64,000 nt of DNA from Coriobacteriaceae bacterium (GTDB taxonomy: Bacteria; Actinomycetota; Coriobacteriia; Coriobacteriales; UMGS124), in NCBI GenBank assembly GCA_019421015.1, contig JAHZGC010000002.1, positions 1,619 to 65,618 of the forward strand, given 5' to 3'. Below the pieces are notes generated by a model. That model ran no database searches. It was not told the origin of the DNA and was given only the letters and a program-made list of their open reading frames with translations. A program made the translations under genes and the position numbers. Shown in pieces: positions 19,580 through 53,565 of this stretch (positions are counted from its first letter, which is position 1; each line of letters opens with the position of its first letter).

Positions 19580-19777
19580 GGAGACTCCTTCGGGGGAGGG
19601 CGGTGTCGTGCGGTGCTGTCTTGCGGGAGTATAGCGCGGCCTGCGGTGGCCCGTGCTCGTCGGGGTTGGGTGGCGTAGCGGGGCGCGTGCGGCATGGGAG
19701 CGCGCGTGGCATAAAACCGCGCAAATCGGGACGTTCCCGTCTGGCACGCCGTCGGCCGAAGGTGCCGGTGGCGTGCC

Positions 19778-21550: not shown

Positions 21551-21755
21551 AGCGTCAACACCTTGCCCCTCTTATCGGACAAACCGGATGATACCGCGCT
21601 TTAGCTGGCATTTGTAGCCCTTTGTCCGATAGGGGCGGCCGACGGGTCGTGCATCATTCGAGCCGTTGCCTACGCCCGGCGCAAACAACGCCCGGGTGCC
21701 CATCGGCGGGGTTGTACCGAAGGTGCCCCCGACTCACGAACCCAAGGAGCTCAAC

Positions 21756-23753: not shown

Positions 23754-24046
23754 TGGCGCCAAAGAGGGTTCTGTAAGTCCGGGACGCCCCGGGTGGCACC
23801 GAATGCTTGTTTTGTAAGTCTCGACGACCCCGGGTGGCACCAGACGCGAGCTCTGTAAGCCCGGGTAGCGGAATATGGCACCGGATCGGTGTTTTGTAAG
23901 CCCGGGTGTGCGCATAACGCCGGTTTTTGCGTGCGAGTTCTTACAAAACTTGCATCTGGTGCCAGCTTGGGCCAGCTGGCCTTACACAACGCCGATCCGG
24001 TGCCATTGGCTGCGCCGGACTTTTACCAAACCCGTATTCGGTGCCA
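23754..24046. repeat. Phased motif array, family 1, locus C (4 direct + 3 inverted)
   Basis: Direct units start at 23754, 23794, 23835 and 23876. Inverted units start at 23940, 23981 and 24022. Central step 64 bp. Confidence 0.9.
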
Positions 24047-25443: not shown

Positions 25444-25569
25444 AGCGAGGTCGTCTCCTCTCCGCCCAGGGGTTTCTCAAAACTCCCTGGCCAACGGGCC
25501 GAACCCGCCGAGGTGCGGAGCCGGCCCGTCGTTATCTCGCCCATGCGGCGCAAGCCGCCGCACTTCTCT

Positions 25570-26040
25570 TTAGATCTCGATGCTCGGGATCTCCGCGTGG
25601 GCGTCTCCGCCGGCGGCGTTGATGCCCGCCATGCGCCCGAAGGTCACGCAGCGGCCGTGGCCGATGCCGGCGACGAAGGTGGGGTAGTCGCCTGCGCCGA
25701 AGAAGTCGCCGGCGGCCGAGCCGCAGACGTAGAGCCCCTCGATGGGCTGGTCGTCCTCGTCGAGCACGCGGCACTGCAGGTCGGTGCGCAGGCCGCCGCA
25801 CATGGTGAGCAGGCAGGCCTGCAGGTGGCCGGCGTAGAACGGCGGGTTCTTGACCGGGTAGAGGATCTCGGCGCGCTTGCCGAAGTCCTCGTCGTTGCCG
25901 TTGTCGCAGAGCTCGTTGTAGCGCTCGACCTCGGCCACGAACACGGCGGGGTCGCAGCCGATCTGCTCGGCCAGCTCCTCGAGCGTGTCGGCCTGGAAGG
26001 TCAGGCCGCTTTCGAGCTCGCCCTCCAGGGTCGCCTTCTG
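25570..26040 (-). pseudogene. C-terminal remnant of a flavoprotein reductase (5' part deleted)
   Basis: ...ADTLEELAEQIGCDPAVFVAEVERYNELCDNGNDEDFGK...PIEGLYVCGSAAGDFFGAG... aligns with the last ~155 aa of the intact paralogs. There is no N-terminal domain or start. Confidence 0.7.
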
Positions 26041-26074
26041 GGCGTCGATAGGCCGGGGTTGCAACCGGGGTTCC

Positions 26075-26221
26075 ATCGCCGACGAGCACGGTGTGTCGCG
26101 CGAGACCGTGAAGACCCACATCGCCGGCATCTACCGCAAGGTCCACGTCCATTCGCACCAGGAGCTGATCGCCGCCCTCGAGGCGAGGGCGGCCCAGGTC
26201 GAGAAGGACGAGACGACGTAG
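26075..26221 (+). pseudogene. C-terminal stub of a LuxR-family HTH
   Basis: IADEHGVSRETVKTHIAGIYRKVHVHSHQELIAAL is only the second half of a LuxR HTH. The upstream sequence is the opposite-strand reductase remnant. Confidence 0.65.
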
Positions 26222-26254
26222 GGGCGGGTGGGGTGGAGAGGGGAGATACCCTAT

Positions 26255-27568
26255 CTATGGCTTCAAACATCCCAGCGGCACCACATATACCCCGTCCGGC
26301 CTGCGATAGGCATAGTGCGTGGGGGTGATGACCAGCAAAAACGACGGCGCGCCCATCACATCGTGGTCGATGCGCCCGGCGAGCTTGAGGAGGTTTGCAG
26401 CCCCCTCGTCCACGAGCGATGCGCCCAGCTTGACCTCCACCAGGCCCCAACGTCCGTCCCGAAGCACGACCGCGGCGTCGGCCTCGAGGCCCGTTGCGTC
26501 GCGGTAGTGGAACACATCCCCTTTGAGCGTCTGGGCGTAGACCCGTAAATCGCGCACGGCCATTGACTCGAACAGGAGGCCCAGGGTGGGAAGGTCTTTG
26601 AGCAGGATCGCGGGGCTGGCTCCAAGTGCGGCCACCGCTAGGGAGGGGTCAACGAAGTGCCTGGTGGGGGTGGTCGCTATCCGGGTCTTTGAGCGTAGCG
26701 ACGGTGTCCAGGCCGGGAGGTCCTCAAAGACGTAGAGGGCTCGCAAGGCCGCCACATAGGAGTCCACCGTTCCGCGCGAGAGCTCGCTTTTTTGGGCCTT
26801 GATGGTTCCGCGAATGGTGGCCATGTCTGCTTGTGTGGCCGTGCACCGCGCGTAGGCCTGCATGATGAGGCGGGCGTACTGGGGATTTCTGCGGGCTCCG
26901 TCCACACGCGATACGTCTTCTTCGGCAACGGCCTCGATGTAGTCGTAGGCGGTTTCGAGCGCGTCTTCACCTCCGAGCACAACGGCTGCCGGCCATCCCC
27001 CACGGCATAGCGAGTAGACCATGGGTTCCAGGTTTCCGGGCGCTGAGCCGCGTATCTCTCCACCGTCAAAGAGCGTCGAAAGCGAGACTTCGCCGCTGGA
27101 CTCCTGCGATTCGAACAACGACATGGGTCTCATGGTGAGAAAAGAGAAGCGCCCTGTGCCCGAGTGCTTTGGACGCTCGTTGGCATGCAGGGGTGTTGCC
27201 GATCCCGTGAGGATAAAACGACTCTTTTCTCCGCTTTGATCGACGGCAAACCGTACGGCATCCCATAGTTGGGGGGCGACCTGCCACTCGTCGATGAGGT
27301 GCGGAGCCGCTCCATCCAAGAGCAACGACGGCTGGGCCTGCGCAGCAATCAGGTTGTTCTCGTAGCTGTTGGGGTCTTGCATGTAGACGGCACTGTTTGC
27401 CTGTCGGGTACAGGTGGCGGTTTTGCCGCACCACTTTGCCCCGCGAACGAGGACTGCGCCCGAGCGATTGAGTTTTCCGGTGAGTTCTTGGTCGGCAAAG
27501 CGAGGTAGATAAGCGGAAGGCAAGATAGCTCCAAAGCGTTGTAGTAAAATACCTGGTAAATAGCTCAA
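26255..27568 (-). CDS. AAA-type ATPase with DUF4143-like C-terminal region
   Basis: YLPRFADQELTGKLNRSGAVLVRGAKWCGKTA (Walker A-like GxxGxGKT variant) and overall similarity to the common stand-alone 'ATP-binding protein/DUF4143' family. TTG start is uncertain. Confidence 0.75.
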   Translation of the reverse strand: MSYLPGILLQRFGAILPSAYLPRFADQELTGKLNRSGAVLVRGAKWCGKTATCTRQANSAVYMQDPNSYENNLIAAQAQPSLLLDGAAPHLIDEWQVAPQLWDAVRFAVDQSGEKSRFILTGSATPLHANERPKHSGTGRFSFLTMRPMSLFESQESSGEVSLSTLFDGGEIRGSAPGNLEPMVYSLCRGGWPAAVVLGGEDALETAYDYIEAVAEEDVSRVDGARRNPQYARLIMQAYARCTATQADMATIRGTIKAQKSELSRGTVDSYVAALRALYVFEDLPAWTPSLRSKTRIATTPTRHFVDPSLAVAALGASPAILLKDLPTLGLLFESMAVRDLRVYAQTLKGDVFHYRDATGLEADAAVVLRDGRWGLVEVKLGASLVDEGAANLLKLAGRIDHDVMGAPSFLLVITPTHYAYRRPDGVYVVPLGCLKP

Positions 27569-27572
27569 TTGT

Positions 27573-27658
27573 GCAGATTGCAGCGTTTCCGTTAGGCAGA
27601 TTGTAGCACTTTCATTGTGCAGATTGCAGCGTTTCCGTTAGGCAGATTGCGGTCTGCC
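27573..27658. repeat. 23-bp tandem repeat x3.7 in divergent intergenic region
   Basis: GCAGATTG[C/T]AGC[G/A][T/C]TT[C/T]C[G/A]TT[A/G][G/T] units start at 27573, 27596, 27619 and 27642. Confidence 0.85.
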
Positions 27659-27737
27659 CCCTTCGCGCGCCGTCCTTCTCGCCCACGAACTGCGCTACAC
27701 TGGGCAGCCACTCCAAAATAATCGGGAGGAGGCCCCC

Positions 27738-29642: not shown

Positions 29643-29841
29643 AGGACGCGTTCAGGGTAAAATCACCCACAGCCAAAAGGGGCGGTTTCGCGCGTGCGCG
29701 CCGACGTAGCGGAGGATTTGGGCTACGCCGAACCTGGCGATTTGGTCGTCGCCGCGACGAGCGAGCACGTCGAGGACGTTTGCAAGGCGGTCGATATCAA
29801 GAAGTCTATGCTCGAGAAGATGTTTGTTTAGGAGGGCGGGA

Positions 29842-30402
29842 ATGGAAAAGCTGATTCTGTTTCACGGTGCTCCTGACAAAGTCGTAGTGCCAACATACGG
29901 TAGGGGCGAAGAAAAGCACGACTACGGCCGTGGTTTCTACCTTACCGGAAGCCTAGACCTTGCGAAGGAATGGGCAGTTTGCAGGCCTAGTTAAGTGAAC
30001 GGCTGGGTTCATAAATATGAACTTGATACCAGTGATCTTAAAATCTTGGATTTTCAAAACGAGGGCGTTCTTCCTTGGCTTGCCGAGTTGATGAAGCATA
30101 GGGATGCGGCGGACTCCAAACGCTATCGCGTGCTCGCAAAGAAGTTTATCGATAAGTATGGCGTGGACACTGCCGGATTCGATGTCATCAAGGGCTGGCG
30201 GGCGAATGCCTCCTATTTTTATATTGCCAGGGAATTCGTGCGGGACAATATCGACATGGACATTCTCGAAGAATTACTTTCTTTGGGAGATTTAGGCATC
30301 CAGTACTGCATTAAATCAGAGCTTGCGTACTCCAAGCTCCATGAGCTCGAAAGCGATTTGCAGGCTGTGCCCTACGAAGAGTTTAACGAGAGGTATAACT
30401 AG
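29842..30402 (+). pseudogene. DUF3990-like (putative ADP-ribosyltransferase-fold) gene with in-frame TAA at codon 51
   Basis: MEKLILFHGAP...HDYGRGFYLTGSLDLAKEWAVCRPS-TAA(29992-29994)-VNGWVHKYELD... The same frame continues to 30402. GGAGGG SD before ATG 29842. Confidence 0.7.
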
Positions 30403-30494
30403 AGAGACGTTATTGCCAGGCGAAAGATGTGCGAACTTGTTGACTCCGACGCTAACCGTGTGACAAGGGTGTTCAGCACGCTATTTGAGGAGCG

Positions 30495-30920
30495 ATGACC
30501 ATGGGGGCATATGCACAAGACTATCTAAACGATGTGGTCGAAAATCAAGGTAAGCTCTTTGATATCATCGCTCAAACCCACCCCGAGGCCGACACCGAGG
30601 ATTTCATCAAGGCCTATATGGCAAGCAAGACGAGAAAAGGCATCGATGAGGGAAAAGCCTACGTTAATACCATGAGCGCCAAAGAGCTGTGGGCCTACTT
30701 TACCGAAACGGAAGGATATTCCCTGAAGCCCGGCAAGGCGCTTGATGGCTTTATGCCCGACTGGATTGGGGAGTTCTATGCCTACTATCAGTGGTATTAC
30801 GATATCCCAAGCAGCGAAGTGCTGAAAGAGGTGCCGCTTGAGTTTTTAAAGAAGGCCTACTGCGGCTTGCATGACCTAGAGCTTGACCTAGCGGTGCAAA
30901 AGGTCGGCGGAGCGAAATGA
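30495..30920 (+). CDS. Hypothetical protein; C-terminal half resembles DUF3791
   Basis: 141-aa ORF in the lower-GC island. GAGGAG SD (the start may be the second ATG at 30501). The tail ...AYCGLHDLELDLAVQKV resembles the Y-x2-LH end of DUF3791 proteins, which usually accompany DUF3990. Confidence 0.5.
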   Translation: MTMGAYAQDYLNDVVENQGKLFDIIAQTHPEADTEDFIKAYMASKTRKGIDEGKAYVNTMSAKELWAYFTETEGYSLKPGKALDGFMPDWIGEFYAYYQWYYDIPSSEVLKEVPLEFLKKAYCGLHDLELDLAVQKVGGAK

Positions 30921-31390
30921 GCATCGTCTGCTTTCATAATCCCGATGAAGACAACGGCTTCATGAGCAACTGGTATCTCTCGCGATTCGTTGTGGATGAC
31001 ATCGCGTTCTCTTCGGTGGAACAGTTCATGATGTACCGAAAGGCGGTCTGTTTCTGCGATGAACCTGCGGCGGAGCAGATACTCGCCACAGACGATGTGG
31101 CTCGGATTAAGACGCTCGGAAGGCTTGTGTCAAACTACGATGAGGGCCTTTGGAACGGTGTTCGGCAAATCGTTGTCTACGAGGGACTTCTGGCGAAGTT
31201 CTCGCAAAACGATGATTTAAGAGGGCGACTAAAGGCAACTGGCGATTCGGTGCTGGCGGAATGTGCTGTACAAGACAAGATTTGGGGTACTGGCCTGTCG
31301 ATGAAAGATCCCAATAGGTTTGATCAATCCAAATGGAAAGGCCAGAATTTGCTTGGGTATACCCTGATGATGGTGCGAGCTGCTACATAG
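30917..31390 (+). CDS. NADAR (YbiA/DUF1768) family protein
   Basis: GFMSNWYLSRFVVDDIAFSSVEQFMMYRKA...KIWGTGLS...GQNLLGYTLMMVR matches the NADAR pattern (F-S-N-[FW]-Y ... E-[HQ]-x-[FM]-x-x-x-K ... W-G). Overlaps the previous gene by 4 nt. Confidence 0.8.
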   Translation: MSIVCFHNPDEDNGFMSNWYLSRFVVDDIAFSSVEQFMMYRKAVCFCDEPAAEQILATDDVARIKTLGRLVSNYDEGLWNGVRQIVVYEGLLAKFSQNDDLRGRLKATGDSVLAECAVQDKIWGTGLSMKDPNRFDQSKWKGQNLLGYTLMMVRAAT

Positions 31391-31521
31391 AGCGTCTTGA
31401 GAACGCCTATGAGGATATTGACGGTCTGGTTGCGACCGGTAGGTATGCTTGGTGATACAAACGACGGCTCTTTGTGCCGCAATATATGCTGGCGGTCGGC
31501 TCTTCAGGGTAGTGCAATTGT

Positions 31522-31841
31522 ATGCAGATGTTCAAGGACCGTCAGGGCGACTTCTGGAAGAGCTGCACGGGCAACCTCAACTTCGGTGCCGCCGAGGGCG
31601 ACGGCATCAAGGCATGCCTGTGGGCCGGCGCATCACCAACGAGTCGATGGACGGCATCGTCACCGATGACGAGTACCGCGCGCTGACCCCCGAGGGAGAG
31701 GTCATCGAGGGCCTTTACGTGACCGGCAACGACTGCGGCTGCAACCACCTCGACAGCTATCCCAACCAGGGCGCCGGCACCTGCTGCGGCCGCAGCGCCG
31801 TAAACGGCATGCTCGTGGGCAAGGCTCTCGCCGCGAAGTAA
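31522..31841 (+). pseudogene. Flavoprotein reductase remnant (two non-contiguous pieces fused out of frame)
   Basis: ...NFGAAEGDGIKACLWAGA (a mid-protein motif) shifts frame near 31625 into ...GIVTDDEYRALTPEGEVIEGLYVTGNDCG...GRSAVNGMLVGKALAAK (the C-terminus). Confidence 0.6.
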
Positions 31842-31869
31842 GAGGCGCGGTTAAGGCCAAGACGCAAGA

Positions 31870-31916
31870 GGGCGCGGCCCCGGGGCAACTGCCTTCTGGG
31901 GTCGCGCCCGTTTTTT
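31870..31916 (+). terminator. Intrinsic terminator
   Basis: GGGCGCGGCCCCGG ... CTGGGGTCGCGCCC stem followed by GTTTTTTGG. Confidence 0.55.
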
Positions 31917-31967
31917 GGAGCGCGTGAGACTGAGGTCCTCTGCTGGCCGTTCTTCGCCGGTTCGCCC

Positions 31968-33416
31968 TTAACGCCGCACGTATCGGTAGGACTTGCCGAT
32001 TCGTACGTGCTCCAACTCCCCGGCTTCCTCTAGGCCCTTGAGGCGTTTTTGGGCGGCACGGACGCTTAGCCCAAAGCGCTGGTTCAGGAGCGCGGCCGTT
32101 ATAAAGCCGGCTTCGTTGCATGCTTCCAGGATAGTTGCGTTGTCGATGGGCTTAGTTGTCGCATGTTTTGCCGGAATAGCTTGCAGCGGGAGCTCCATGC
32201 GCACCTCAGCGGGGGCATGGGTCTCAAGAAGCAGGGGCTCCTGCCAGTCCATGGAGCGCCAGGTGGTAAAAATCTTGCAGATCCCGCTGCCGGCCCGATC
32301 GATAACCCCTACCTGCCCAAAGATTCTCATAAGGGTGGGGTTGCGCGGCTCAGAGAGGCCGCCTTCTATGGCGACTGCGCGGTCGACCAGGAACGACCCC
32401 GAATTCGTGACGGTCAGCCGGTCGGGATGCAGCACGACGCGCACGGTGCTGCTGCTTCCGTAGTAGGCGTGTACCAGCGCGTTGGCCATCGCTTCGTGTA
32501 CAGAGTCTTTGACGTCGTTTGACGATACGTGGCGCATGCCGGATGTGTCGACCTTAAAAGGCGTTGCGAGCGCGCGGTCGATGCGGTTGGCGACTGTGAA
32601 GTAGAAATCGACCAGGTTTCCGCTCCAATCGCCGCTGGTGGATACCACGCGGTCGTCCCAGCGGAGCTCCCCCGATGTTTCCTGGCGGTAGTCCAGCAGG
32701 AAGTGTGGAAAGAGCGCTGTGATGTCGTATTCGTTTCCAAAGGCTAGCAGCCCGGCTCTGGTGGGGCGCAGAAGACCGTCGGCATCCTTGGCTGCCGCGC
32801 CGATGTGGTAAAGAAAATCGGCGTCGGTGTCGGATCGCCAGGGATGCGTGGGCTTGTCGGCGGCAAACAGGGCGCGATAGGACGAGATTGTTTGGGAATT
32901 AAGGGAGTCGAGCGAAAGCTCGCGCAACGGCTGGCGATCGGCCGCGGGAATCGCGTCGTACTCCATGAGCCGGATATCGTCCTGACCGCATTGGATATCC
33001 GAGCTGCCGCGGCGTACGAACGCCACGAGAGCTTTCGCTCGACGGTTCCACACGGTAACCGGCCTGTCGGATCGTTCGGCACGTGGTACCGTAATGATAA
33101 CGACCGTGCTGTCGTTAATTTTGACCGAACGCACGCCGTCTGGCAGCATGACATCGCGGGAGACTTTGGACGGGTTGCGCACAACATCCCAGAAGGCTTT
33201 GATGAGGGTATCCGCGTCGGGCACCCCTTGAATCGTAAAGACGGACGGCCGCCCCTCCTGTGCCTCTTCACGAACGCCAAGGACGATTTCGCCGCCTTCG
33301 GTATTCGCGAACGCCGAATAGGTCTCCCAGATGTCCTCGGGGAGTCCGGCGAAGGCCTCTTTAAACTCTAGTTTTTGGTGCTCATGGAGGTTGTTGAGCT
33401 CGTTCATGAATGCCAT
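31968..33416 (-). CDS. AlbA_2 (Schlafen-like) / HATPase_c_4 putative DNA-binding protein ('RecG-like' regulator family)
   Basis: N-terminal HEHQKLEFKEAF...FANTEGGEIVLGV (AlbA_2). RNPTLMRIFGQVGVIDRAGSGICKI motif. C-terminal winged-helix-like tail. ATG 33416 after AAGAGG (the ORF track uses GTG 33422). Confidence 0.75.
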   Translation of the reverse strand: MAFMNELNNLHEHQKLEFKEAFAGLPEDIWETYSAFANTEGGEIVLGVREEAQEGRPSVFTIQGVPDADTLIKAFWDVVRNPSKVSRDVMLPDGVRSVKINDSTVVIITVPRAERSDRPVTVWNRRAKALVAFVRRGSSDIQCGQDDIRLMEYDAIPAADRQPLRELSLDSLNSQTISSYRALFAADKPTHPWRSDTDADFLYHIGAAAKDADGLLRPTRAGLLAFGNEYDITALFPHFLLDYRQETSGELRWDDRVVSTSGDWSGNLVDFYFTVANRIDRALATPFKVDTSGMRHVSSNDVKDSVHEAMANALVHAYYGSSSTVRVVLHPDRLTVTNSGSFLVDRAVAIEGGLSEPRNPTLMRIFGQVGVIDRAGSGICKIFTTWRSMDWQEPLLLETHAPAEVRMELPLQAIPAKHATTKPIDNATILEACNEAGFITAALLNQRFGLSVRAAQKRLKGLEEAGELEHVRIGKSYRYVRR

Positions 33417-33526
33417 GGGCACCTCTTCTTTGCCGGTCGGTTGTCTCCCATAATACGCCCGATTATGGCTGGCTATGGCGGTACTGCCCGGGATATCGAC
33501 GTTCTCTATGAGCGTGTTTGCGCCCT

Positions 33527-33646
33527 GTTCGCGAACGGTTCGCGCACGGCTGCCCTGTTCGCGAACGGTTCGCGCACGGACGCCCGGTTCGCGAACGGTT
33601 CGCGCACGGACGCCCGGTTCGCGAACGGTTCGCGAACGGACGCCTA
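33527..33646. repeat. 30-bp tandem repeat x4 containing palindrome GTTCGCGAAC
   Basis: Units start at 33527, 33557, 33587 and 33617. Each unit reads GTTCGCGAACGGTTCGCG[C/A]ACGG.... The last unit overlaps the PFOR stop codon. Confidence 0.9.
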
Positions 33647-36600
33647 CTCCCCATACACCCCCACCGTGCGCGAGAGCACCTGGTACTCGCGGTCGCAGTC
33701 CTTGGCGAGCTCACTCTGCAACCGGCTCGAGAGTTCGGGCTTGCGGCTGGCCAGTCGCGCATAGCGGTCCTGACCTGCAAGGAAGTCCTTCATCGAGCCG
33801 TTGGGCGCGGCGCAGTCCACGGTGAGCGGGTCCTTGCCCTGCCGGGCCAGCCGCGGGTCGAACCTGAACAGCGGCCAGTAGCCCGCCTCCACCGCCTCCT
33901 TGGACGCCCGGATCGAGGTGCCCATGCCCGCCTTGAGCCCCCAGCTGATGCACGGGCACAGCGCGATCACGATGCTCGGCCCGTCGTAGTTCTCGGCCTC
34001 GCGCAGCGCGTCGATGGCCTGCTGCATGTTGGCGCCCAGGCAGATCTGCGCCACGTACACGTAGCCGTAGGCCATCATCATGCGGCCCAGGTTCTTCTTG
34101 GGCGTGGCCTTGCCGTTGAGCGCAAAGCCGCTCACGCTGCCCAGTTGGGTGGCCTTGCTCATCTCGCCGCCGGTGTTGGAGTACCCCTCGGTGTCGAGCA
34201 CCAGCACGTTGAGGTTCTCTCCGCTGGCCAACACCTCGTCGAGGCCGCCGTAGCCGATGTCGTAGGCCCACCCGTCGCCGCCCACGGCCCAGACGCTCTT
34301 CTTGCCGAACATGCTCCCGCAGTCCAGGATCTCGCGCACCTGGGCGAGAAGCCCCCGCGACCTTGCGGCGGCCTCCGTGGAAGCGCCGTTGTCCGGAGCG
34401 CCTGCGGTTCCCGAGCTTACCGCCACTCCGCTTATGCCGTCCATTCCCGAGGTCTTCTCCGCCCCCTGCATCCAGCTGCGCAGCGCATCCTGGGCTGCCT
34501 GACCTGCGGCGTAGGCAGCGTCGGCGTCGTCGCGCACGGCGATCCACGCCTCCAGGAGCGTCTTGACCTCGGTGGGCGTCTCCGCTGCCTGGGCCACCGA
34601 GGTGGCCAGGTTCACCAGGTGCTGGCGGCGCACCTTGACCGCCTTGGCGATGCCGTAGCCGTACTCGCCGTTGTCCTCGAAGAGCGAGTTGCCCCAGGCC
34701 GGCCCGTGGCCACGGCGGTTCACGGTGTAGGGCATCGCGGGGCTGTAGGCGCCCCAGATCGAGCTGCACCCGGTGGCGTTGGCCATGATGAGCCGATCGC
34801 CGAAAAGCTGGGTGAGCAGCTTTACGTGCGGGGTCTCTCCGCAGCCGCCGCAGCAGCCCGAGAACTCGAGCAGTGGCTGCTGGAGCTGGGTGCCGGGGAT
34901 GCTGGTGGCGGGGATCAGGTCGTCTTTGATCGAGACGTTGGCCTGGGCAAACGCCAGGTTCTGCCTCTGTTCGTCGAGCTGGCTGGCCAGGGGCCGCATG
35001 ACCAGGGCCTTACCCGGCGCGGGGCAGTTGTCGGCGCACGAGCCGCACCCCACGCAGTCCTGCGGGTACACCTGGATGCGGAGGTTGAGCCCCTCGAGCC
35101 CCTTGAAGCTGGCCTTCTTGGTGGCGTAGCCGGCCGGCGCGCCCTCGAGCTCGGCATCGGTGGCCAGGTAGGGCCGGATGGCCGCATGGGGGCACACGAG
35201 CGAGCACTCGTAGCACTGCACGCACTTGGCCACGTCCCACTCCGGGATCTCAAAGGCCACGGTGCGCTTCTCGTAGGCGGCTGTGCCTGGGGGAACGATG
35301 CCGGCGGGATCGAGCTTGGACACCGGCAGCGCGTTGCCCTCGAGCCGCTCGATGGGCCAGAAGACGTCGTCCAGGTAGGCCTGGGAGGGGCCTCCGTGGG
35401 GTCCGACCGAGGGCGACGGCCCCGCTGTGGTCGCGCCACCTTGACTCTTCGCATCGGAGAAGCCCTCGTCTTCCGGGGCCTTCTCCGATGCGGTACCCCA
35501 GCTGGCGGGGTAGTCGACCTGCACGATGGCCCCGGCTGTGGCGTCGATGGCCTGGATGTTCTTGGCCACCACGTCGGACCCCTTGGAGGCGTACATCACC
35601 TGCACGTCCCGCTTGAGGGCGCTTGCCGCGGCGTCGAAGTCCATGGCGCCCGAGAGCTTGAAGAAGGCCGTCTCCATGACCATGTTGATGCGCGCACCAA
35701 GCCCCACCTGCGCCGCGATGGCCGAGGCGTCGATCACGTAGAAGCGCGCCTTCTTGGCCGCGATGGCCTGCCGCAGCGTCGCGGGCAGCTCTCGTTCGAG
35801 CTCGCCGACCGTGGTCCAGGGGGCGTTGAGCACAAAGACGCCGCCTTCCTTGAGGTGCTCGAGCATGCGGTAGCCACGCTTGACGTAGATGTCTTTGTGG
35901 CAGGCCACGTAGTCGGCGCGGTCGATGAGGTAGGGGGCATCGATGGGATCGGGGCCCAGCCGCAGGTAGGTGATCGTGAGGCCGCCCGACTTCTTGGAGT
36001 CGAACCACGAGTATTCCTGCACGTAGGCGCCGGTCTTGTCGCTCACGATCTTGGCGGCCTCCTTGCTGGCACCCACGGTGCCGTCGCTGCCGAAGCCGTA
36101 GAAGATGCACTGGGTGAGGCCGCGTCCCTCCAGCAGGTCGAGCTCCGGGCCTACCGGCAGCGACAGGTGGGTCACGTCGTCGTCGATGCCCACGGTGAAG
36201 CGCGGCTTCATGGGGGCGGCGGCCGAGGTCCCGCCGTCGCTCAGAGCGGGTTCTCGGCCGCAAGGTGCCGGGAGGTGAGGCGTACTAGATGTACGTGAGC
36301 CTTCCGGGAACGCGGCGGCCGAGGTTCCGCCACCATCCCTCATGTTGTCGAAGACGGCGCGCACCATGGCGGGGGTAAAGTCCTTCGAGCTCAGCCCATA
36401 GCGGCCGCCGATGGCCCGCACGTCGCCGCGCCCCTGGCTCATGAGCGCGCAGCATACGTCCTGGAGCAGGGGTTCTCCCTGGCTGCCGGGCTCTTTGGTG
36501 CGGTCGAGGGCGCACACCACGCGCGTGCTCGCCGGTAGGGTCGCCACAAAGCGCTCAGCGTCGAAGGGCCGGTAGAGGCGCACCTTCACGAGGCCCACCT

Positions 36601-37516
36601 TCTCGCCCTGGGCGTTAAGGTGGCGCACGGTCTGCTCCACCACCGAACAGCTCGAACCCATGGCCACTACCACGCGCTCGGCATCGGGTGCCCCCACGTA
36701 GTCAAAGGCGTGGTAGCTGCGGCCGGTAAGGGCTGCTACCTGCGCCATGGTCTTCTCCACGATGCCCGGCAGCGCGTCGTAGTAGCGGTTGGGTGCCTCG
36801 CGGTTCTGGAAGTAGATGTCGGGGTTCTGGGCGGTGCCGCGAATCTGCGGGTGCTCTGGGTCCATGGCGCGGGCGCGGAACGCACGGACCTTGTCCCAGT
36901 TCACCAGGCCGGTCATGGCCTCGGGCGCGATGGTCTCGATGGTGCAGATCTCGTCGCTCGTGCGAAAACCGTCAAAGAAGTGCGCAAAGGGGAGCGACCC
37001 CTCGATGGCGCTCAGGTGTGCCACCAGGCTCAGGTCCATGCACTCCTGCACCGACGAGCTGGCCAGCATGGCCACGCCCGTGGCGCGCACGGCCATGATG
37101 TCCTGGTGGTCTCCGAAGATCGAGAGCGCGTGGGCCGCCAGCGACCGGCACGTGATGTGGAACACGCCGGGCAGCAGCTCGCCGGCGATCTTGTACATGT
37201 TGGGGATCATGAGCATGAGGCCCTGGGAGGCGGTGAACGTGCTGGCCAGGGCCCCGCCGGCCAAGGCGCCGTGGAGCGCGCCGGCCACGCCCTTCTCAGA
37301 CTGCATCTCCTTGACCGCCACCGGCTGGCCAAAAAGGTTCGGGCGCCCGGCCGCCGCCCACGACTCCACGGTCTCGGCCATGTGCGACGCCGGCGTGATG
37401 GGGTAGATGGCCGCCACGTCGCTGAGCGCGTAGGCCGCCCACGCTGCGGCGGTCATGCCGTCCATGGCCTGGCGGGCGGGGGAGGACGAAGGTTGGGGGT
37501 TCGGGGTGGTCGTCAT
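33644..37516 (-). CDS. nifJ: Pyruvate:ferredoxin (flavodoxin) oxidoreductase
   Basis: AAWAAYALSDVAAIYPITPAS...EMQSEKGVAGALHGAL. Two CxxCxxCxxxCP motifs. TPP-binding C-terminus GGDGWAYDIGYGGLD. Start set at ATG 37516 (the ORF track starts at 37576). Confidence 0.9.
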   Translation of the reverse strand: MTTTPNPQPSSSPARQAMDGMTAAAWAAYALSDVAAIYPITPASHMAETVESWAAAGRPNLFGQPVAVKEMQSEKGVAGALHGALAGGALASTFTASQGLMLMIPNMYKIAGELLPGVFHITCRSLAAHALSIFGDHQDIMAVRATGVAMLASSSVQECMDLSLVAHLSAIEGSLPFAHFFDGFRTSDEICTIETIAPEAMTGLVNWDKVRAFRARAMDPEHPQIRGTAQNPDIYFQNREAPNRYYDALPGIVEKTMAQVAALTGRSYHAFDYVGAPDAERVVVAMGSSCSVVEQTVRHLNAQGEKVGLVKVRLYRPFDAERFVATLPASTRVVCALDRTKEPGSQGEPLLQDVCCALMSQGRGDVRAIGGRYGLSSKDFTPAMVRAVFDNMRDGGGTSAAAFPEGSRTSSTPHLPAPCGREPALSDGGTSAAAPMKPRFTVGIDDDVTHLSLPVGPELDLLEGRGLTQCIFYGFGSDGTVGASKEAAKIVSDKTGAYVQEYSWFDSKKSGGLTITYLRLGPDPIDAPYLIDRADYVACHKDIYVKRGYRMLEHLKEGGVFVLNAPWTTVGELERELPATLRQAIAAKKARFYVIDASAIAAQVGLGARINMVMETAFFKLSGAMDFDAAASALKRDVQVMYASKGSDVVAKNIQAIDATAGAIVQVDYPASWGTASEKAPEDEGFSDAKSQGGATTAGPSPSVGPHGGPSQAYLDDVFWPIERLEGNALPVSKLDPAGIVPPGTAAYEKRTVAFEIPEWDVAKCVQCYECSLVCPHAAIRPYLATDAELEGAPAGYATKKASFKGLEGLNLRIQVYPQDCVGCGSCADNCPAPGKALVMRPLASQLDEQRQNLAFAQANVSIKDDLIPATSIPGTQLQQPLLEFSGCCGGCGETPHVKLLTQLFGDRLIMANATGCSSIWGAYSPAMPYTVNRRGHGPAWGNSLFEDNGEYGYGIAKAVKVRRQHLVNLATSVAQAAETPTEVKTLLEAWIAVRDDADAAYAAGQAAQDALRSWMQGAEKTSGMDGISGVAVSSGTAGAPDNGASTEAAARSRGLLAQVREILDCGSMFGKKSVWAVGGDGWAYDIGYGGLDEVLASGENLNVLVLDTEGYSNTGGEMSKATQLGSVSGFALNGKATPKKNLGRMMMAYGYVYVAQICLGANMQQAIDALREAENYDGPSIVIALCPCISWGLKAGMGTSIRASKEAVEAGYWPLFRFDPRLARQGKDPLTVDCAAPNGSMKDFLAGQDRYARLASRKPELSSRLQSELAKDCDREYQVLSRTVGVYGE

Positions 37517-37662: not shown

Positions 37663-37782
37663 TGGCAAGAAATTCGAGATATCAGGATGTTTTACATGCT
37701 TGGAGGGCCTCTGTCATCCTGATATCTTGCATTTTTTGCCAATGGGGCCGGAAAACTTCCTGATTTATCGCAATTCTTGCCA
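37663..37782. repeat. Phased motif array, family 2, locus F (1 direct + 2 inverted)
   Basis: TGGCAAGAAATTCGAGATATCAGGA at 37663. Inverted TCCTGA...TTGCCA units start at 37717 and 37758 (41 bp apart). Confidence 0.8.
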
Positions 37783-37860
37783 GCGGTCCTCGCCCCCCGG
37801 GTAAATCATGAAATGGAGGCGAGACCGCCGACAGCGTGCCGGGATTCCCCCAGGTCGAGC

Positions 37861-38072
37861 TGACACCAAACTGGCGTTCTGTAAGTGGAATCGACCTGTG
37901 TTGGCACCGAATACGAGTTTTGTAAGCAGGGTCGGGGGCTTATCGCCCAAAATCGAGGGCCCGGGCTTACAGAACGCCGGTTTGGTGCCACTTTCCGCTC
38001 GACGGGCTTACAAAACTCGCATCCGGTGCCAACGCGCGCCCCGCGCCCTTACAAAACTCGCATTTGGTGCCG
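37861..38072. repeat. Phased motif array, family 1, locus D (2 direct + 3 inverted)
   Basis: Direct units start at 37861 and 37902. Inverted units start at 37966, 38007 and 38048. 41/64-bp geometry. Confidence 0.9.
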
Positions 38073-38174
38073 CGAGCCACCTGTCGGCCAACCCGCCGAC
38101 CACCCACCAGCCGGCCGCCAACCATCCCACCCGGCCACCCCATCCGGCGTCCCACGCCGTCCGCCTGTGCGCTC

Positions 38175-39446
38175 CTACCCCACAACCCCCTTCTCCCGCA
38201 GCTCGTCCACCTGCGCCTCCGTGTACCCCAGCTCGCTCAGCATGCGTGCGGTGTCGGCCCCCAGCGCCGGTGCCGGCCCAATGGTCGGCTGCCAGCCCGA
38301 GAACAGAATCGGGCATCCTACCAGCTTGAACGTCCCGCGCGCGCCGCCCTGGTCCACGCTTGCGATAAGTCCGGCCTGTGCCAGTTCGTCGTCGGCCGCA
38401 AGCTCGGCCCAGCTCAGCACCGGCCCGCAGGGCACGCCGGCCGCCCCGAGCGCCTTCGTCACCTCGTACTTGTCGCGCGTGATCGTGTATTTCTCCGCGG
38501 CGGCGTAGATATCGCGCTTGTGTTCGAAGCGGGCCTCGGGGGTGTTGTAGCGCGGGTCGGTCTTCCAGCTCTCGAGCCCCAGCGCGTCGCAGAACTCCTC
38601 GAACCCCTTGCCCGCCCGCTGCACCACCACGTACACGTAGGCGTTGGGGTCGGTCTCCCAGCCCTTGCACCGGTAGCACCACCCCAGCTCGCCGCCGCCC
38701 TCGGCGTTGGCCACGCGGGGCACGGCCCGCCCCTGCTTCTGGTAGGGGTAGTTGGGGTATTCGGGCAGGTAGCCCTTGGCGTCGAGGAACGCCTGGTCGT
38801 GCATGCGCACGCGCCCCAGGTTGAGCACCGCGTTTTGCATGGACTGCTCCACGTGGCAGCCATCGCCGGTGCGGGAGCGCTGCTGCAGGGCGGCAAGCAA
38901 CCCAATGAGCAGGTGCATGCCGGCGTTCACGTCGCCCAGCGACGAGCCCGAGAGCAGCGGCGCGTCGTTGGGCCCCATGTTCCAGCCGGTGTTCGAGGCG
39001 GCTCCGCCCATGCACTGGGCCAGCGCGTCGAAGGCCTCGGCCGGCTGATAGCGGTAACCGGGGTTCGTGCAGCTCAACGACCCCATGATGAGCCGCGGGT
39101 TCAGGGTGTGCACGCTGTCCCATGCCAGCCCCAGACCCTCGAGGGCCGCAGGGCCGCGGTCTTCCACAAAGAGGTCGGCCTGGGCGAGAAGGTCGCGCAG
39201 GATGCGCGCGCCATCGGGGGAGGCCAGGTCCACCGCGATTGAGCGCTTGTTGGTGTTGAGCTGCACAAATCCCAGGCTGTCGGTATCGGGGACGTCCTGC
39301 AGGCAACGGCGTTCGGGATCGCCTGTGCCAAGCGGTTCCACCTTAACAACGCTTGCGCCGAGCCATGCAAGCATTTGTGTGCAAGAGGGACCTGCGATGC
39401 CTTGCGTTATATCTATTACGTGCAGATATTCCAACGGAGCAACCAT
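38175..39446 (-). CDS. frc: Formyl-CoA:oxalate CoA-transferase (family III CoA-transferase)
   Basis: Similar along its length to the Oxalobacter Frc sequence as I recall it (VIDITQGIAGPSCTQMLAWLGA..., GWCYRCKGWETDPNAYVYV, VPCGPVLS). Adjacent to oxc. Confidence 0.85.
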   Translation of the reverse strand: MVAPLEYLHVIDITQGIAGPSCTQMLAWLGASVVKVEPLGTGDPERRCLQDVPDTDSLGFVQLNTNKRSIAVDLASPDGARILRDLLAQADLFVEDRGPAALEGLGLAWDSVHTLNPRLIMGSLSCTNPGYRYQPAEAFDALAQCMGGAASNTGWNMGPNDAPLLSGSSLGDVNAGMHLLIGLLAALQQRSRTGDGCHVEQSMQNAVLNLGRVRMHDQAFLDAKGYLPEYPNYPYQKQGRAVPRVANAEGGGELGWCYRCKGWETDPNAYVYVVVQRAGKGFEEFCDALGLESWKTDPRYNTPEARFEHKRDIYAAAEKYTITRDKYEVTKALGAAGVPCGPVLSWAELAADDELAQAGLIASVDQGGARGTFKLVGCPILFSGWQPTIGPAPALGADTARMLSELGYTEAQVDELREKGVVG

Positions 39447-43325: not shown

Positions 43326-44171
43326 ATGAAGACAACAACTGCGCATCGTGTGGCCGCTTTAACCGGTTCGGCGCTCATGCTGGCCGGGATGGGCGCGGGA
43401 GGGGGTTTTGCCTCTGCGGGCGAGGCCCCGGCCACCGTTTCCCAAGAGGGCGTGTTTCAGAAGGTTGCTGCCGATAAGGGCGCTGTGGCCAAGGCCCCAG
43501 CCGTCGCCAGAACGTTTGCCTACAGCCAGGGTGCGCCTGCTTCCATCGACACGATCGCCCGGGTCATGGGCACACCTCGATACGCCCGCAGCTCCACCTA
43601 TGCGGGTGCCCCGCAGAGCCTCAACGCCCTGGACTGGACCATCGAGGTGGGTGGCGCCGTAGAAAACGAGTTTGTCGCCACGGTGGGCGATCTGGTAGAG
43701 AACGGACCCATGAACATCGTCATGGGTTGCAGCTGTGCGAGCAACCCGGCCAACGGCGTGGCCTCCGCGGACACCGACGTGAGCGGTGTCATGTTTCGCT
43801 CCATCGTCGATGCGGCCAACCCTGACGCTGGGGTAAACACTGTGGTCTTCACCTCGGCGGACGGCTACGAGGTGGCGCTTCCCCTGCGCTATTTGGACCA
43901 GCGCTACTCCCTCATCGGGTTCGACGTTAACGGCCAGCCGCTGAGCGATTCCATGGGCGGCTCCAACCAGCTTTGGCTCTCGGGCACCTCGGCCAACAAC
44001 CACGCTTTGTGCGGTTGGTCGGCCCCACAATCTCCCCCTGGGTCGCGGGGCCGAGGACGCTTGCCCGCCATGGCAAGAAACCACGGAAATCAGGATGCCG
44101 GCCGGGTCTTACGGCAGGAAATCAAACTAATCAGGATGTTCGGGGGTTTACGGTGGCAGAAAATGGCATAA
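43326..44171 (+). CDS. Secreted molybdopterin-oxidoreductase-domain-like protein (Oxidored_molyb/YedY-like); 3' end uncertain
   Basis: Signal peptide MKTTTAHRVAALTGSALMLAGMGAGGGFASA. WTIEVGG...FVATVGDL...MGCSCASN...VVFTSADGYEVALPL...FDVNGQPL...GGSNQLWL pattern. The last ~45 codons run into repeat array G. Confidence 0.55.
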   Translation: MKTTTAHRVAALTGSALMLAGMGAGGGFASAGEAPATVSQEGVFQKVAADKGAVAKAPAVARTFAYSQGAPASIDTIARVMGTPRYARSSTYAGAPQSLNALDWTIEVGGAVENEFVATVGDLVENGPMNIVMGCSCASNPANGVASADTDVSGVMFRSIVDAANPDAGVNTVVFTSADGYEVALPLRYLDQRYSLIGFDVNGQPLSDSMGGSNQLWLSGTSANNHALCGWSAPQSPPGSRGRGRLPAMARNHGNQDAGRVLRQEIKLIRMFGGLRWQKMA

Positions 44172-44293
44172 AACCTCGTAAATCAGGAAATTTACCAGGC
44201 ATTTGGACTGGTCGGCTACCATCGGGTTCCTGATTTCTCATGTCTCTTGCCGTTCGGTACCTTGGGCATCCTGATTTCCCGGACTTTTTGCCA
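44071..44293. repeat. Phased motif array, family 2, locus G (3 direct + 2 inverted)
   Basis: Direct units start at 44071, 44112 and 44164. Inverted units start at 44228 and 44269. Steps are 41, 52, 64 and 41 bp. Confidence 0.85.
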
Positions 44294-44355: not shown

Positions 44356-44608
44356 TGGCACGAAACTGGAGTTATGCAAGGGGGCAGAGCGTCCACTGGT
44401 ACCGAATGCGAGTTTTGTAAGGGTGCCCGGAGCCATCTGGCACCAAATCGGAGATATGAAAGGGCTCGCGGACAAAAACCGGTATCGTGCGTGCTCCCGG
44501 ACTTACAAAACTCGCGTCTTGTGCTATCTCCGCGCCTCTTGGCTTACAGAACCCGCATTCGGTGTCACCTCCCTCCCCGGGGGCTTACACAACTCGCGTC
44601 CGGTGCCA
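44356..44608. repeat. Phased motif array, family 1, locus E (3 degenerate direct + 3 inverted)
   Basis: Direct units start at 44356, 44397 and 44438. Inverted units start at 44502, 44543 and 44584. 41/64-bp geometry. Confidence 0.85.
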
Positions 44609-44887
44609 TCCTGCGTTCCCACCGCCCCGTGTCCCCATCCCTTCCCCTCAGCGCAAGAATTAACCCCGCCTTACTCTCCATGAATGCTACACAACTCCGA
44701 TTCCATAGCACTTTTAGACGGGCCGCCCTCAGTGTCAACGCCTGGTTACACAACCCTCAAAGGCGTCTAATAAACGCAGGTCAAGGGGGCTTTTCTGACA
44801 CCTGATAACCGTGCTTAAATACGGCTTGGGGGGTTACCGAACCACAAAGCAATACGTCAGCAAGACCTTTGGAGAGAGGGGATAGTT

Positions 44888-46399
44888 ATGTCTGACATCA
44901 CCACGACCCGTCGCGCGTTTGTGGGTGGCATGGCCGCTATGGGTGGCATGGCCGCGATGGCCGCCGCCGCTGCCAAGGCCGGTATCGCTGTGGCCGACGA
45001 GGCCGCCGCTGCCGATCCCGCTACCACCTACGAGCTCGAGGACCCGAGCGAGTACTGGGGCGAGGGCGTCGTTGCCCCCCACACCACCCGCGAGTCTGCC
45101 TACGAGAACGTCCTGCCCGAGCTGGCCGACGCCTCCATGTCCGAGCTCGTCGACATGGTCCAGGATACCCTGCCCCTCGACGAGATCGAGGACGCCGTCC
45201 TGCCCGACGGCACCACCGTGCCCGCCGTGTACGTCAAGCTGCGCAACCACATCAACCGCATCGGCTCCGGCATCGGCGGCACCCCGCTGCCCAACTCCTA
45301 CGAGATGATCATGTCTCTGTGGAGCGAGGAAGACGCCCAGCACGAGATCGAGATGCCCTACAACAAGTACTTCGACGCCAACGACTACCACTGGCTGAGC
45401 GGCCGTCCCGTCGAGGAGTGCACCGAGATCTGCGACGATCTGGCCTCCCGCGGCATGATCATGCGCGCCAATCACTCCGGCCACATCGTGTACCACCTGC
45501 TGCCCTACATCAACGGCTTCTGGGAGTTCAACGAGCTGCGCGCCTACTTCGAGAACGGCGGCGACCCCGACGGCGTGGCCGAGGCTCCCGAGGCCTACGC
45601 CGCCGCTGGCGCCTTTGACGCCCTGGGCATCGGCGGCGCCGAGCCCGGCTCGTCCTTCGAGGCCCTCGTGCCGCTGTTCCACACCTACCCCGTGAGCGCC
45701 GACGTCGTGGAGGAGGACGAGCTCGCCCCCTACATGGACTGGAAGGCCATCATCGAGGCCAACGAGAAGATCACCGTCTCCCCCTGCCAGTGCCGCCTCA
45801 TGTGGAAGTCCTTCGGCGCCCCCATGTGCCACGGCGACGGCGACCACCCCTTCGAGACCTGCCTGTCCTTCGGTGAGCTCGCCGAGTACTTCGACGAGAT
45901 CGGCATCGGCCGCTACATCAGCCAGGACGAGGCCATCGCCATGGTCGAGAAGTGCATGGACGCCGGCATGGTGCCCGAGTCCCTCAGCATGAAGGAAGTC
46001 GACATCATGTGCATGTGCCACGGCGACTGCTGCGGCAACCTGAGCGGCTACAAGGCCATGGGCGGCCAGGCCCACGCCAACGTGAACGTGAACGCCTACC
46101 TGCTCAAGTACGATCCCGAGAAGTGCATCAGCTGCGGTGCCTGCGCCGAGCGCTGCCCCATGGAGGCCATCAGCCTCAACGAGGACGGCATCTGCCTGCA
46201 CAACAACGCCTGCGTGCGTTGCGGCCAGTGCGTCACCGTGTGCCCGGCCGACGCCCGCATCCTCAGCTACCGCGGCGACTACCCCGAGCTCGGCCGCGAC
46301 TACGTCGAGGCCGTCGAGATGCTGTCCGCCGAGCGTATGCGCCGCGGCATGATCACCGACTTCGCCGGCGGCGAGGTCCAGGCCCCGGCCGAGGCGTAA
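44888..46399 (+). CDS. Tat-exported 4Fe-4S dicluster protein (paralog 3)
   Basis: Tat signal TRRAFVGGMAAMGG. SPCQCR and CMCHGDCC clusters. CISCGACAERCP and CVRCGQCVTVCP motifs. GGAGAGAGGGG SD. Confidence 0.8.
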   Translation: MSDITTTRRAFVGGMAAMGGMAAMAAAAAKAGIAVADEAAAADPATTYELEDPSEYWGEGVVAPHTTRESAYENVLPELADASMSELVDMVQDTLPLDEIEDAVLPDGTTVPAVYVKLRNHINRIGSGIGGTPLPNSYEMIMSLWSEEDAQHEIEMPYNKYFDANDYHWLSGRPVEECTEICDDLASRGMIMRANHSGHIVYHLLPYINGFWEFNELRAYFENGGDPDGVAEAPEAYAAAGAFDALGIGGAEPGSSFEALVPLFHTYPVSADVVEEDELAPYMDWKAIIEANEKITVSPCQCRLMWKSFGAPMCHGDGDHPFETCLSFGELAEYFDEIGIGRYISQDEAIAMVEKCMDAGMVPESLSMKEVDIMCMCHGDCCGNLSGYKAMGGQAHANVNVNAYLLKYDPEKCISCGACAERCPMEAISLNEDGICLHNNACVRCGQCVTVCPADARILSYRGDYPELGRDYVEAVEMLSAERMRRGMITDFAGGEVQAPAEA

Positions 46400-53341: not shown

Positions 53342-53565
53342 TGGCAGGAATCGGGACTTTGCGACTTTCCGGGTGGTCCGACTGGCGGAAATCCGAACTT
53401 TGCGACGTGGTTTTGGTGGTAGGGAAGAAGGGTGTGGAGGTCGGTGCGTCTCTCACCTGTGGTGATACTGATGCTAATAGTGGTGCTACCGTAAAAGCGA
53501 GTCGCATAGTTCGGATCCCTGCCATTCCCAACCCTGCTCAAGTCGCAAAGTTCCGATTTCTGCCG
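53342..53565. repeat. Phased motif array, family 3, locus H (2 direct + 2 inverted)
   Basis: TGGC[A/G]GGAA(A)TC[G/C]G[G/A]ACTTTGCGAC at 53342 and 53383. Inverted GTCGCA...CTGCC[A/G] at 53501 and 53542. 41-bp phasing within each arm. Confidence 0.8.

Follow-up and report, generated by a model that had tools for sequence, protein, structure and literature searches.

Opposed, helically phased arrays of a 25-bp unit in a Coriobacteriaceae bacterium: array D between frc and the pyruvate:ferredoxin oxidoreductase gene

Regular series of protein-binding sites have been described in several bacterial systems. The sopC site of the F plasmid consists of 12 tandem 43-bp repeats bound by SopB, and the parC site of plasmid R1 consists of two blocks of five 11-bp repeats, bound by ParR, which flank a 39-bp promoter core. 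Activators of the MalT type oligomerise and use asymmetric boxes, direct and inverted, upstream of promoters; these boxes are ~10 bp long, few and irregularly placed. Here we describe array D, located at positions 37861–38072 of a 64-kb stretch of the genome of a Coriobacteriaceae bacterium (contig JAHZGC010000002.1; the whole stretch is hereafter the window), between the formyl-CoA transferase gene (frc) and the pyruvate:ferredoxin oxidoreductase (PFOR) gene. It is one of five arrays in the window built from the same 25-bp unit, and we will use the term “F1” to define this family. In our judgment the chances are about even that array D is a member of a clade-specific system of protein-binding-site arrays, on which two opposed oligomers would form a regulatory or architectural module.

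As is generally known, sopC, parC and the iterons place protein-binding sites at a period of about whole helical turns, in blocks about a core, for a cooperative nucleoprotein complex, and in this they are like the present arrays. On the other hand, sopC and parC occur once per replicon near par or rep genes, with direct repeats in both blocks and conservation of the whole repeat, whereas the arrays occupy at least five chromosomal loci in 30 kb and have opposed blocks, random spacers and at least four specificity families. The window was scanned against Pfam through ~30 of its open reading frames (ORFs), and no par or rep genes were found among these. Of the marks of a partition site or iteron, the arrays have the phased repeated sites but neither linked par or rep genes nor few sites per replicon. 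The DnaA boxes of oriC are also asymmetric sites, with a single orientation in each half that is reversed from one half to the other, serving two facing head-to-tail oligomers. However, the oriC boxes are 9 bp long, spaced by ~11 bp and confined to a single locus with a DNA-unwinding element, whereas the array units are 25 bp long, recur every 41 bp and are found at many loci; unlike the oriC setting, the window has no replication genes.

Conserved extragenic units in clusters with less conserved linkers, species-specific and frequent after genes and between convergent genes, are likewise found in the REP, BIME and REPIN elements. REP units are palindromic and alternate in orientation, and the arms of REPINs covary, whereas F1 units are non-palindromic, stand in same-orientation blocks and show no covariation of partners. 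The arrays are superficially like CRISPR in their regular repeats, their unique spacers of constant length and a unit number that varies between strains. However, CRISPR has near-identical direct repeats of ~23–55 bp in one orientation and spacers of ~21–72 bp, whereas the 25-bp F1 units are 76% identical in two opposed blocks and the F1 spacers are 16 bp, plus one 39-bp centre. The F1 arrays are many and small (5–7 units), and the ORFs scanned include no cas genes. The features expected of miniature inverted-repeat transposable elements (MITEs) or transposon ends are lacking as well, since there are no duplications, the F1 spacers are random and the best-conserved sites are not the outermost ones. 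Sites conserved relative to the surrounding non-coding DNA, as in a cis-regulatory regulon, are what the arrays show.

The arrays are also like the MalT-type systems, in which an oligomerising regulator reads direct and inverted asymmetric sites upstream of promoters; the window yielded no STAND ATPase regulator like MalT. In Geobacter metallireducens, multicopy “global regulator binding sites” have been described which are intergenic, carry ~9-bp repeats, three per site, and were assigned to IHF/HU purely from their sequence (Aklujkar et al. 2009; PMC2700814). Like the present arrays, these sites are species-specific tandem short repeats with opposite-strand pairs and several related classes, are missing from the sister species and sometimes stand beside IS elements (PMC2700814). 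Unlike the arrays, they have a variable pair distance, no sequence similarity and no fixed 41-bp lattice (PMC2700814). Phased arrays of protein-binding sites are known in general; the array architecture and family structure are not described in the resources searched, and the literature searched yielded no description of these arrays.

Anatomy and phasing of the F1 arrays

Array D, obtained by direct reading and by repeat search, contains five 25-bp F1 units, two on the + strand followed by three on the − strand. The steps between unit starts are 41, 64, 41 and 41 bp, and the central step is 63 bp when both starts are counted from GGCACC/CTTACA. An earlier note on this DNA had claimed two direct and three inverted units with 41-bp phasing and a 64-bp central step, and sequence reading, repeat search and pattern search all agree with it. 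The parts of the array, with unit scores from the matrix introduced below, are:

37861–37885, + strand: F1 unit, outer unit of the + arm (TGACACCAAACTGGCGTTCTGTAAG), 35.2 bits
37902–37926, + strand: F1 unit, inner unit of the + arm (TGGCACCGAATACGAGTTTTGTAAG), 40.1 bits
37927–37965: array D centre, 39 bp, with an A4 tract (CCCAAAATCGAGG)
37966–37990, − strand: F1 unit, inner unit of the − arm (− strand reading TGGCACCAAACCGGCGTTCTGTAAG), 38.4 bits
38007–38031, − strand: F1 unit, middle unit of the − arm, 41.6 bits
38048–38072, − strand: F1 unit, outer unit of the − arm, 38.8 bits

The F1 unit can be written as T-GGCACC-N9-TT-N-TGTAAG. The window was scanned with the pattern GGCACC-N9-TTNTGTAAG, allowing up to two mismatches, and the chance level was taken from 100 shuffles. 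The scan gives 30 matches where 0.24 are expected (the maximum in any shuffle is 2), all of them inside five arrays and none elsewhere in the window, which rules out a chance origin of the units. All five arrays have the same layout, in which + units are followed by a 63-bp step and then by − units, with a 41-bp period throughout. The spacing is invariant, at 41 bp in 20 steps and 63 bp in 5 steps. A lag of 41 is also unique among lags of 20–79 in the self-similarity of the window. The arrays, given as + units plus − units, are:

14952–15245: F1 array A, 4+3 (pattern matches 14953–15244)
19778–20030: F1 array B, 3+3 (pattern matches 19779–20029)
23755–24046: F1 array C, 3+3 and a damaged fourth + unit at ~23755 (pattern matches 23795–24045)
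37861–38072: F1 array D, 2+3 (pattern matches 37862–38071)
44356–44608: F1 array E, 3+3 (pattern matches 44357–44607)

A position weight matrix made from the 30 units has the consensus T-GGCACC-RRA-Y-N-S-G-N-G-TT-N-TGTAAG, in which ~18 positions are near-invariant. Its information has sharp edges at exactly 25 bp and falls to zero directly outside. The matrix also confirms that the unit is asymmetric and non-palindromic. With ~33 bits per unit and 5–7 units per array, the units separate cleanly from the rest of the window, scoring 25–42 bits while every other site scores at most 12 bits. By rank from the centre, the rank 3 and rank 4 units score 34.6 and 29.2 bits against ~37 bits for the inner units, and these slightly lower outer scores fit the expectation of cooperative extension from the centre.

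The units, not the spacers, have been retained. Between arrays, the units are 76% identical, whereas the 16-bp spacers are 31% identical against 27% expected for random sequence. Two units agree at 18.7–19.1 of 25 positions whether they come from the same arm, from symmetric hairpin partners or from different arrays, and the partners (18.9 of 25) are no closer than non-partners (19.0–19.1 of 25). Since units are equally alike within arrays, between partners and between arrays, neither recent duplication, nor concerted evolution, nor covariation driven by pairing is indicated; recent tandem duplication or concerted evolution is rejected on the ground that units of the same array are not more alike than units of different arrays. 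The combination of 76% identical units, random spacers and equal similarity in all classes indicates that each unit is kept by a common sequence-specific constraint.

The 39-bp centres of the F1 arrays are 44% identical overall. The centres of arrays B, C, E and X, the last being a further F1 array in the related strain L086, are 49–69% identical (59–69% for every pair but B–X) and have in common the polar sequence GGaCAAAAACCGGyA..GTGCGyGC.CCCGG. The centres of arrays A and D differ from it; that of D has no homology to the polar centre and also contains an A-tract. With respect to the genes beside it, the shared centre motif showed no consistent polarity.

Sister families, strains and distribution

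Two further families are present in the window. The F2 unit is 27 bp long and reads TGGCA-AGAAAT-N6-AATCAGGA-NG, and the F3 unit reads TGGCRGRAATCSGRACTTTGCGAC. Their arrays are:

37663–37782: F2 array adjoining array D, 1+2; + unit 37663–37689, − units 37715–37741 and 37756–37782
44071–44293: F2 array adjoining array E, 3+2; steps 41, 52, 62 and 41 bp
53342–53565: F3 array, 2+2, 41-bp period, between a solute-binding-protein gene and a DUF2779 gene, which are divergently transcribed

An outer TGGCA box and the 41-bp period are common to F1, F2 and F3, and the inner box differs. Within an F2 arm the units are stepped by 41 or 52 bp, and the centres of the two inner units are 51/52 or 62 bp apart. 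The steps of F1, F2 and the F4 family described below equal 3, 4, 5 or 6 helical turns to within ~0.1 turn. The centre-to-centre distance of 118 bp over the dyad of F3 (~11.2 turns) falls outside this whole-turn rule, the gap between its arms being unusually long. A lone F2-like unit (24.9 bits) is located at 19707–19733, between array B and a LuxR promoter, and a weaker one lies in the intergenic region at ~60063–60100, before a 366-aa gene at 60170.

The fourth family, F4, has been found in a sister species with 83% PFOR identity (loci L085 and L095; GCA_029782595.1), which has no 41-bp arrays. The F4 unit is 25 bp long, CTGYCAAAAC-N6-CCGCYGTGTACG, and has the same layout as the other units, TG.CA being the outer box and TGTA.G the inner one. 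The units are arranged 2+2 at a 32-bp period about a conserved 17-bp centre (ATTTTCTCGAGCGAAAA), so that the unit-centre distances of 32 and 42 bp correspond to 3 and 4 turns. Four copies are known:

L095 4189–4320: F4, copy 1
L095 9857–9995: F4, copy 2
L095 13157–13295: F4, copy 3
L085 ~10934–11070: F4

These copies are 80–90% alike over their whole 135 bp including the spacers, have sharp ends (CTTG-CTGCCAAAAC ... GTTTTGGCAG) and show no target-site duplications. The conserved promoter block of the Na/Pi transporter gene (…ACTTTACGCAGCCTTTACACCGCCCTTGC…TATGCT), which array A precedes in the window, has one F4 copy ~40 bp upstream of it in the sister species, so the family has changed at an orthologous promoter. 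Two other copies (L095 copies 1 and 2) lie between convergent genes, and L095 copy 3 lies between divergent genes.

The organism is an uncultured gut member of the Eggerthellaceae. The closest PFOR among GTDB representatives is 67% identical and belongs to Adlercreutzia, and two adjacent exact F1 units gave no hits in the 185,579 GTDB representative genomes. A series of strains with 90–99% PFOR identity was drawn from metagenome assemblies (L001 and L086–L091). Array D is kept in all of these, and array E is kept in L086–L088, L090 and L091, which are all the loci covering its position. In the strain with 90% PFOR identity, array D is reduced to 1+2 units. The F2 array beside D has 4+2 units in four strains, including L001 (2534–2776) and L086 (9612–9854), which are 99% identical to the window, and 1+2 units in the window and in two others (L087 and L088). 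The difference in length between the two forms is exactly 123 bp, or 3 × 41. As the 1+2 arrays have different junction units, the unit number has changed repeatedly, in 41-bp steps. Across strains, array E has substitutions at 10% of the conserved unit positions, 17% of the variable unit positions and 21% of the spacer positions, and the contrast between conserved unit positions and spacers gives p = 0.024 by Fisher's test.

Outside this series, L083, a 1.3-kb contig of a lower-GC organism, contains an F2 array and an F1 array (2+3, 41/63 steps) which flank an acetyltransferase gene. This lineage is unrelated to the window organism, and its F1 consensus and geometry are identical. A further contig, L082, ends inside an F1 arm. 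The species with 81% PFOR identity (L084 and L093) has no array at any period, and the PFOR loci of other Eggerthellaceae (~20 loci, 350 kb) have no arrays at any period of 18–90 bp. Searches of viral contigs gave no hits, and plasmid and phage records show no similarity.

Some rearrangements between strains lie close to arrays. The segment from the flavin reductase gene to the gene of a 634-aa membrane protein (24079–27700 in the window, 19958–23800 in L086) is rearranged. In the window and in L089 it contains DUF8425 and a 186-aa fragment of an FAD-binding reductase, with an AAA_14/DUF4143 gene in addition in L089, while in L086 there is an intact reductase of 478 aa together with a LysR gene, F1 array X and an F2 array; the homology between the window and L086 breaks ~50 bp from array X. 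Strain L087 has two IS256-family copies (8161–9666 and 20229–21733) with 85% identity between them. One of them sits 14 bp beyond the edge of F1 array D; the other has taken the place of a 3.2-kb segment that reached from within F1 array X into an F2 array. The ends of IS256 were considered as a source of the units and rejected, being unrelated to them.

The protein-binding reading and its alternatives

The constraint on the units is most likely protein binding, most likely with an oligomeric geometry and a regulatory role. Each 25-bp unit would be an asymmetric two-part recognition site, with an outer box (TGGCA and an A-rich stretch) common to all families and a family-specific inner box (TTYTGTAAG in F1). 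A protein with two DNA-reading parts could read TGGCA in every family with one part and the family-specific box with the other, and the readers of F1, F2, F3 and F4 would be paralogues or orthologues with a common TGGCA-recognising part. As the units stand at whole helical turns, all bound proteins would lie on one face of the DNA. The same-way units within an arm suit head-to-tail oligomerisation, and arms which point at each other over the 39-bp centre suggest two opposed oligomers or a folded “zipper”. In the folded form, units equidistant from the centre would be bridged, with the DNA folding at the A-tract-containing centre. The complex would act on neighbouring transcription, either activating or repressing it from upstream or serving as an insulator or roadblock, and at array D it would do so on PFOR, in concert with the F2 array beside it. 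A weak candidate for the binder is the pair of transmembrane LuxR regulators whose genes flank array B.

Several observations weigh against this reading. The contrast in substitutions between units and spacers is not significant when pooled over all arrays (p = 0.18). At D and at E, F1 and F2 do not stand in the same order with respect to the gene downstream. The ~13 arrays seen lie between ~6 tandem, 4 convergent and 3 divergent gene pairs, a split close to random intergenic placement, so there is no placement rule relative to genes. The arrays are dispensable: in species with 81–83% PFOR identity the interval from frc to PFOR contains a different gene and no array, and array B has decayed in L092. 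About 20 other Eggerthellaceae loci with LuxR and reductase genes have no phased arrays. Finally, the likeness of the F4 copies over their whole length looks like the recent copying of a discrete element.

This last point leads to an explanation which we regard as unlikely, namely that the arrays are a selfish interspersed repeat of the REP/BIME, REPIN or MITE-like kind, a cassette without host function copied by a transposase or recombinase that reads the 25-bp units. It would account for the patchy distribution, with 8 arrays in the 64 kb here and others in the unrelated L082 and L083 but none in one species with 81% PFOR identity or in any GTDB representative. It would also account for the sharp-ended F4 copies, for placement independent of gene orientation, including between convergent genes, for the different families at one spot in sister species, and for the polar centre of B, C, E and X, which suggests common descent. 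However, neutral decay of dead copies would erode units and spacers alike, whereas the F1 spacers are randomised and the units are not. The flanks of the F1 arrays are unrelated, with no conserved flanks or target-site duplications found, and the lowest-scoring units are the outermost ones, contrary to what transposon ends show. The units neither form palindromes nor alternate in orientation as in REP/BIME, and partners do not covary as in REPINs. Arrays D and E stay at fixed loci in all strains with 90–99% PFOR identity, and the plasmid and phage records again offer no relative. The ORFs and called genes examined (~64 kb and the flanks in relatives) revealed no gene of the Y1/RAYT type, and the only transposases nearby are of the IS256 family, with the unrelated ends noted above. 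Both the element-like F4 copies and the placement of some arrays between convergent genes nevertheless leave room for selfish, cassette-like spread, and the two views can be combined, in that arrays may spread as cassettes and be kept where the host uses them.

Two other explanations were weighed. It is quite improbable that the arrays are the operators of the 10–12-transmembrane LuxR activators of Coriobacteriia, which would be a special case of the favoured protein-binding reading. GerE-type domains usually read short symmetric sites as dimers, which counts against 25-bp asymmetric operators. Three such regulators are encoded in the window, with array B directly between two of them, and the 41-bp period (~14 nm) would leave room for bulky membrane proteins side by side. 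The DNA sites of this family are not described in the paper that defined it, which shows its characterised members to be locus-specific activators (PMC9734109), yet F1 occurs at six or more unrelated loci, including those of PFOR and the Na/Pi transporter. Moreover, the LuxR-plus-reductase loci of the 81% species and other Eggerthellaceae lack phased arrays at any period, and a 64%-identical orthologue of the 546-aa LuxR has no upstream array. We consider it very unlikely that the arrays act after transcription as RNA or single-stranded DNA hairpins, that is, as a bidirectional terminator, an mRNA 3′-end stabiliser or an RNase III target after genes like frc. The − strand transcript of 37855–38078 does fold to −111 kcal/mol (z = −6.0 against shuffles), and most arrays are downstream of at least one gene 3′ end (for example D, B, C and L095 copies 1 and 2). 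However, symmetric partners are not more complementary than non-partners, the variable middles of the units are unpaired with the partner, and in the minimum-energy fold of array D the pairing of units is out of register; conservation is of a specific asymmetric sequence and not of complementarity. Three arrays (F3, the L083 F1 array and L095 copy 3) lie between divergent genes and have no 3′ end, and the window has no Rfam family match anywhere and no intrinsic-terminator signal above chance. ARAGORN found no tRNA in it either.

Other candidates have been rejected. A sigma-54 promoter (TGGCAC-N5-TTGC) is excluded by reading, as its second box would have to stand 6 bp closer. Promoters of the sigma-70 and ECF types are at odds with the spacing, and a promoter scan found nothing above chance. 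Autoregulation of the 546-aa LuxR through array B was set aside because the array is decayed at the locus of an 83%-identical orthologue and absent at those of 64% and 47% orthologues. F1 and F2 arrays bracket genes in L083 and L086, but as the ends of a cargo-carrying element they fail, since A, B and C lack an F2 partner; the quasi-palindromic arrays give no orientation signal for this idea. An element selected for its hairpin is not supported, given partners without covariation and a fold out of register.

A bolder reading, tentative and on balance doubtful, is that the arrays form a new class of prokaryotic interspersed element, landing pads for paralogous proteins that polymerise as two opposed filaments. 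The pads would be the two-part 25-bp units on their strict helical lattice, and the filaments would grow from the polar centre. Such elements would turn over as cassettes, with a switch of family and of period from 41 to 32 bp at one promoter between sister species and changes of unit number between strains, and they would serve this gut actinobacterial clade as architectural elements, enhancer-like or insulator-like, that co-evolve fast with their binders.

The protein-binding reading would be of interest because regulation in the Coriobacteriia is almost unmapped, though these gut bacteria metabolise drugs, dietary compounds and neurotransmitters, and it is not even known which DNA the transmembrane LuxR proteins, the regulator family that dominates in them, recognise. 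A unit so rich in information, present 5–7 times per array, offers a direct handle with which to fish for the binder and its target set. The latter appears to include genes of central energy metabolism, such as those for PFOR, an Fe-S protein and a phosphate transporter. With its strict lattice, opposed arms, specificity families and family switch at an orthologous promoter, this is a compact natural system which could be used to study the co-evolution of site arrays and proteins, or the spread of a new interspersed repeat.

Gene neighbourhoods and other features of the window

The genes on either side of array D are:

33644–37516, − strand: PFOR gene (TIGR02176, 1578 bits)
38175–39446, − strand: frc, formyl-CoA transferase gene (TIGR03253, 510 bits against a cut-off of 504)

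The PFOR start at 37516 is the start of the 1290-aa form that homologues use, and frc is followed by the gene for oxalyl-CoA decarboxylase. Array D lies 103 bp from the frc stop codon and 345 bp from the PFOR start codon. The placement downstream of frc and upstream of the PFOR promoter region, as first described from the sequence, holds with both genes identified by these families, and so does the claim that F1 extends beyond reductase and LuxR loci, array D being flanked by frc and PFOR. As the F2 array at 37663–37782 intervenes between array D and PFOR, F1 is not the promoter-proximal element at PFOR.

Directly after the PFOR stop codon, at 33521–33644, is a tandem repeat of 30 bp (CGCCCGGTTCGCGAACGGTTCGCGCACGGA; 4.1 copies, 94% matches). 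The register of its alignment is shifted in related strains, suggesting that the copy number varies. Beside PFOR there is also a low-GC island (~29700–33450, GC 0.53 at 30–32 kb) with a Schlafen/AlbA_2-HATPase_c_4 gene, and in related strains the same interval contains NADAR and DUF3990 genes too. This island is probably horizontally acquired or a defence island.

At the other loci, array A is ~65–100 bp upstream of the conserved promoter-like block of the Na/Pi cotransporter gene. Array B, between two transmembrane LuxR genes, lies 36 bp after the stop of the 418-aa LuxR gene and is ~140 bp upstream of the conserved TATACT of the next one. The three transmembrane LuxR regulators of the window comprise two with ~10–12 predicted transmembrane segments and GerE, and a third with ~6 segments. 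Array C lies between the convergent genes for a flavin reductase and a DUF8425 protein, and array E is 280 bp upstream of a Tat-signal Fe-S protein gene. Arrays A, B, D and E are 65–290 bp upstream of gene starts or conserved promoter blocks. As array C stands between convergent genes and there is no consistent relation to gene orientation, “upstream of a promoter” describes location and not action. Arrays between convergent genes are C, the F2 array of L086 and L095 copies 1 and 2, and those between divergent genes are F3, the F1 array of L083 and L095 copy 3.

Between array E and the Fe-S gene, the 240-bp leader at 44650–44888 is more conserved between strains than array E itself, and it may hold a promoter and a structured 5′ untranslated region, although without an Rfam match. 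Two short tandem repeats were also recorded, one with a 25-bp unit (17855–17913, 2.4 copies) just after the stop of the 546-aa LuxR gene, and one with a 23-bp unit (27573–27650, 3.4 copies) upstream of the gene of the 634-aa membrane protein. At 56210–59720, a Fic/DOC gene overlaps the start of a gene for a 1011-aa UvrA-like ABC protein, which is probably a UvrA paralogue and not a repair enzyme.

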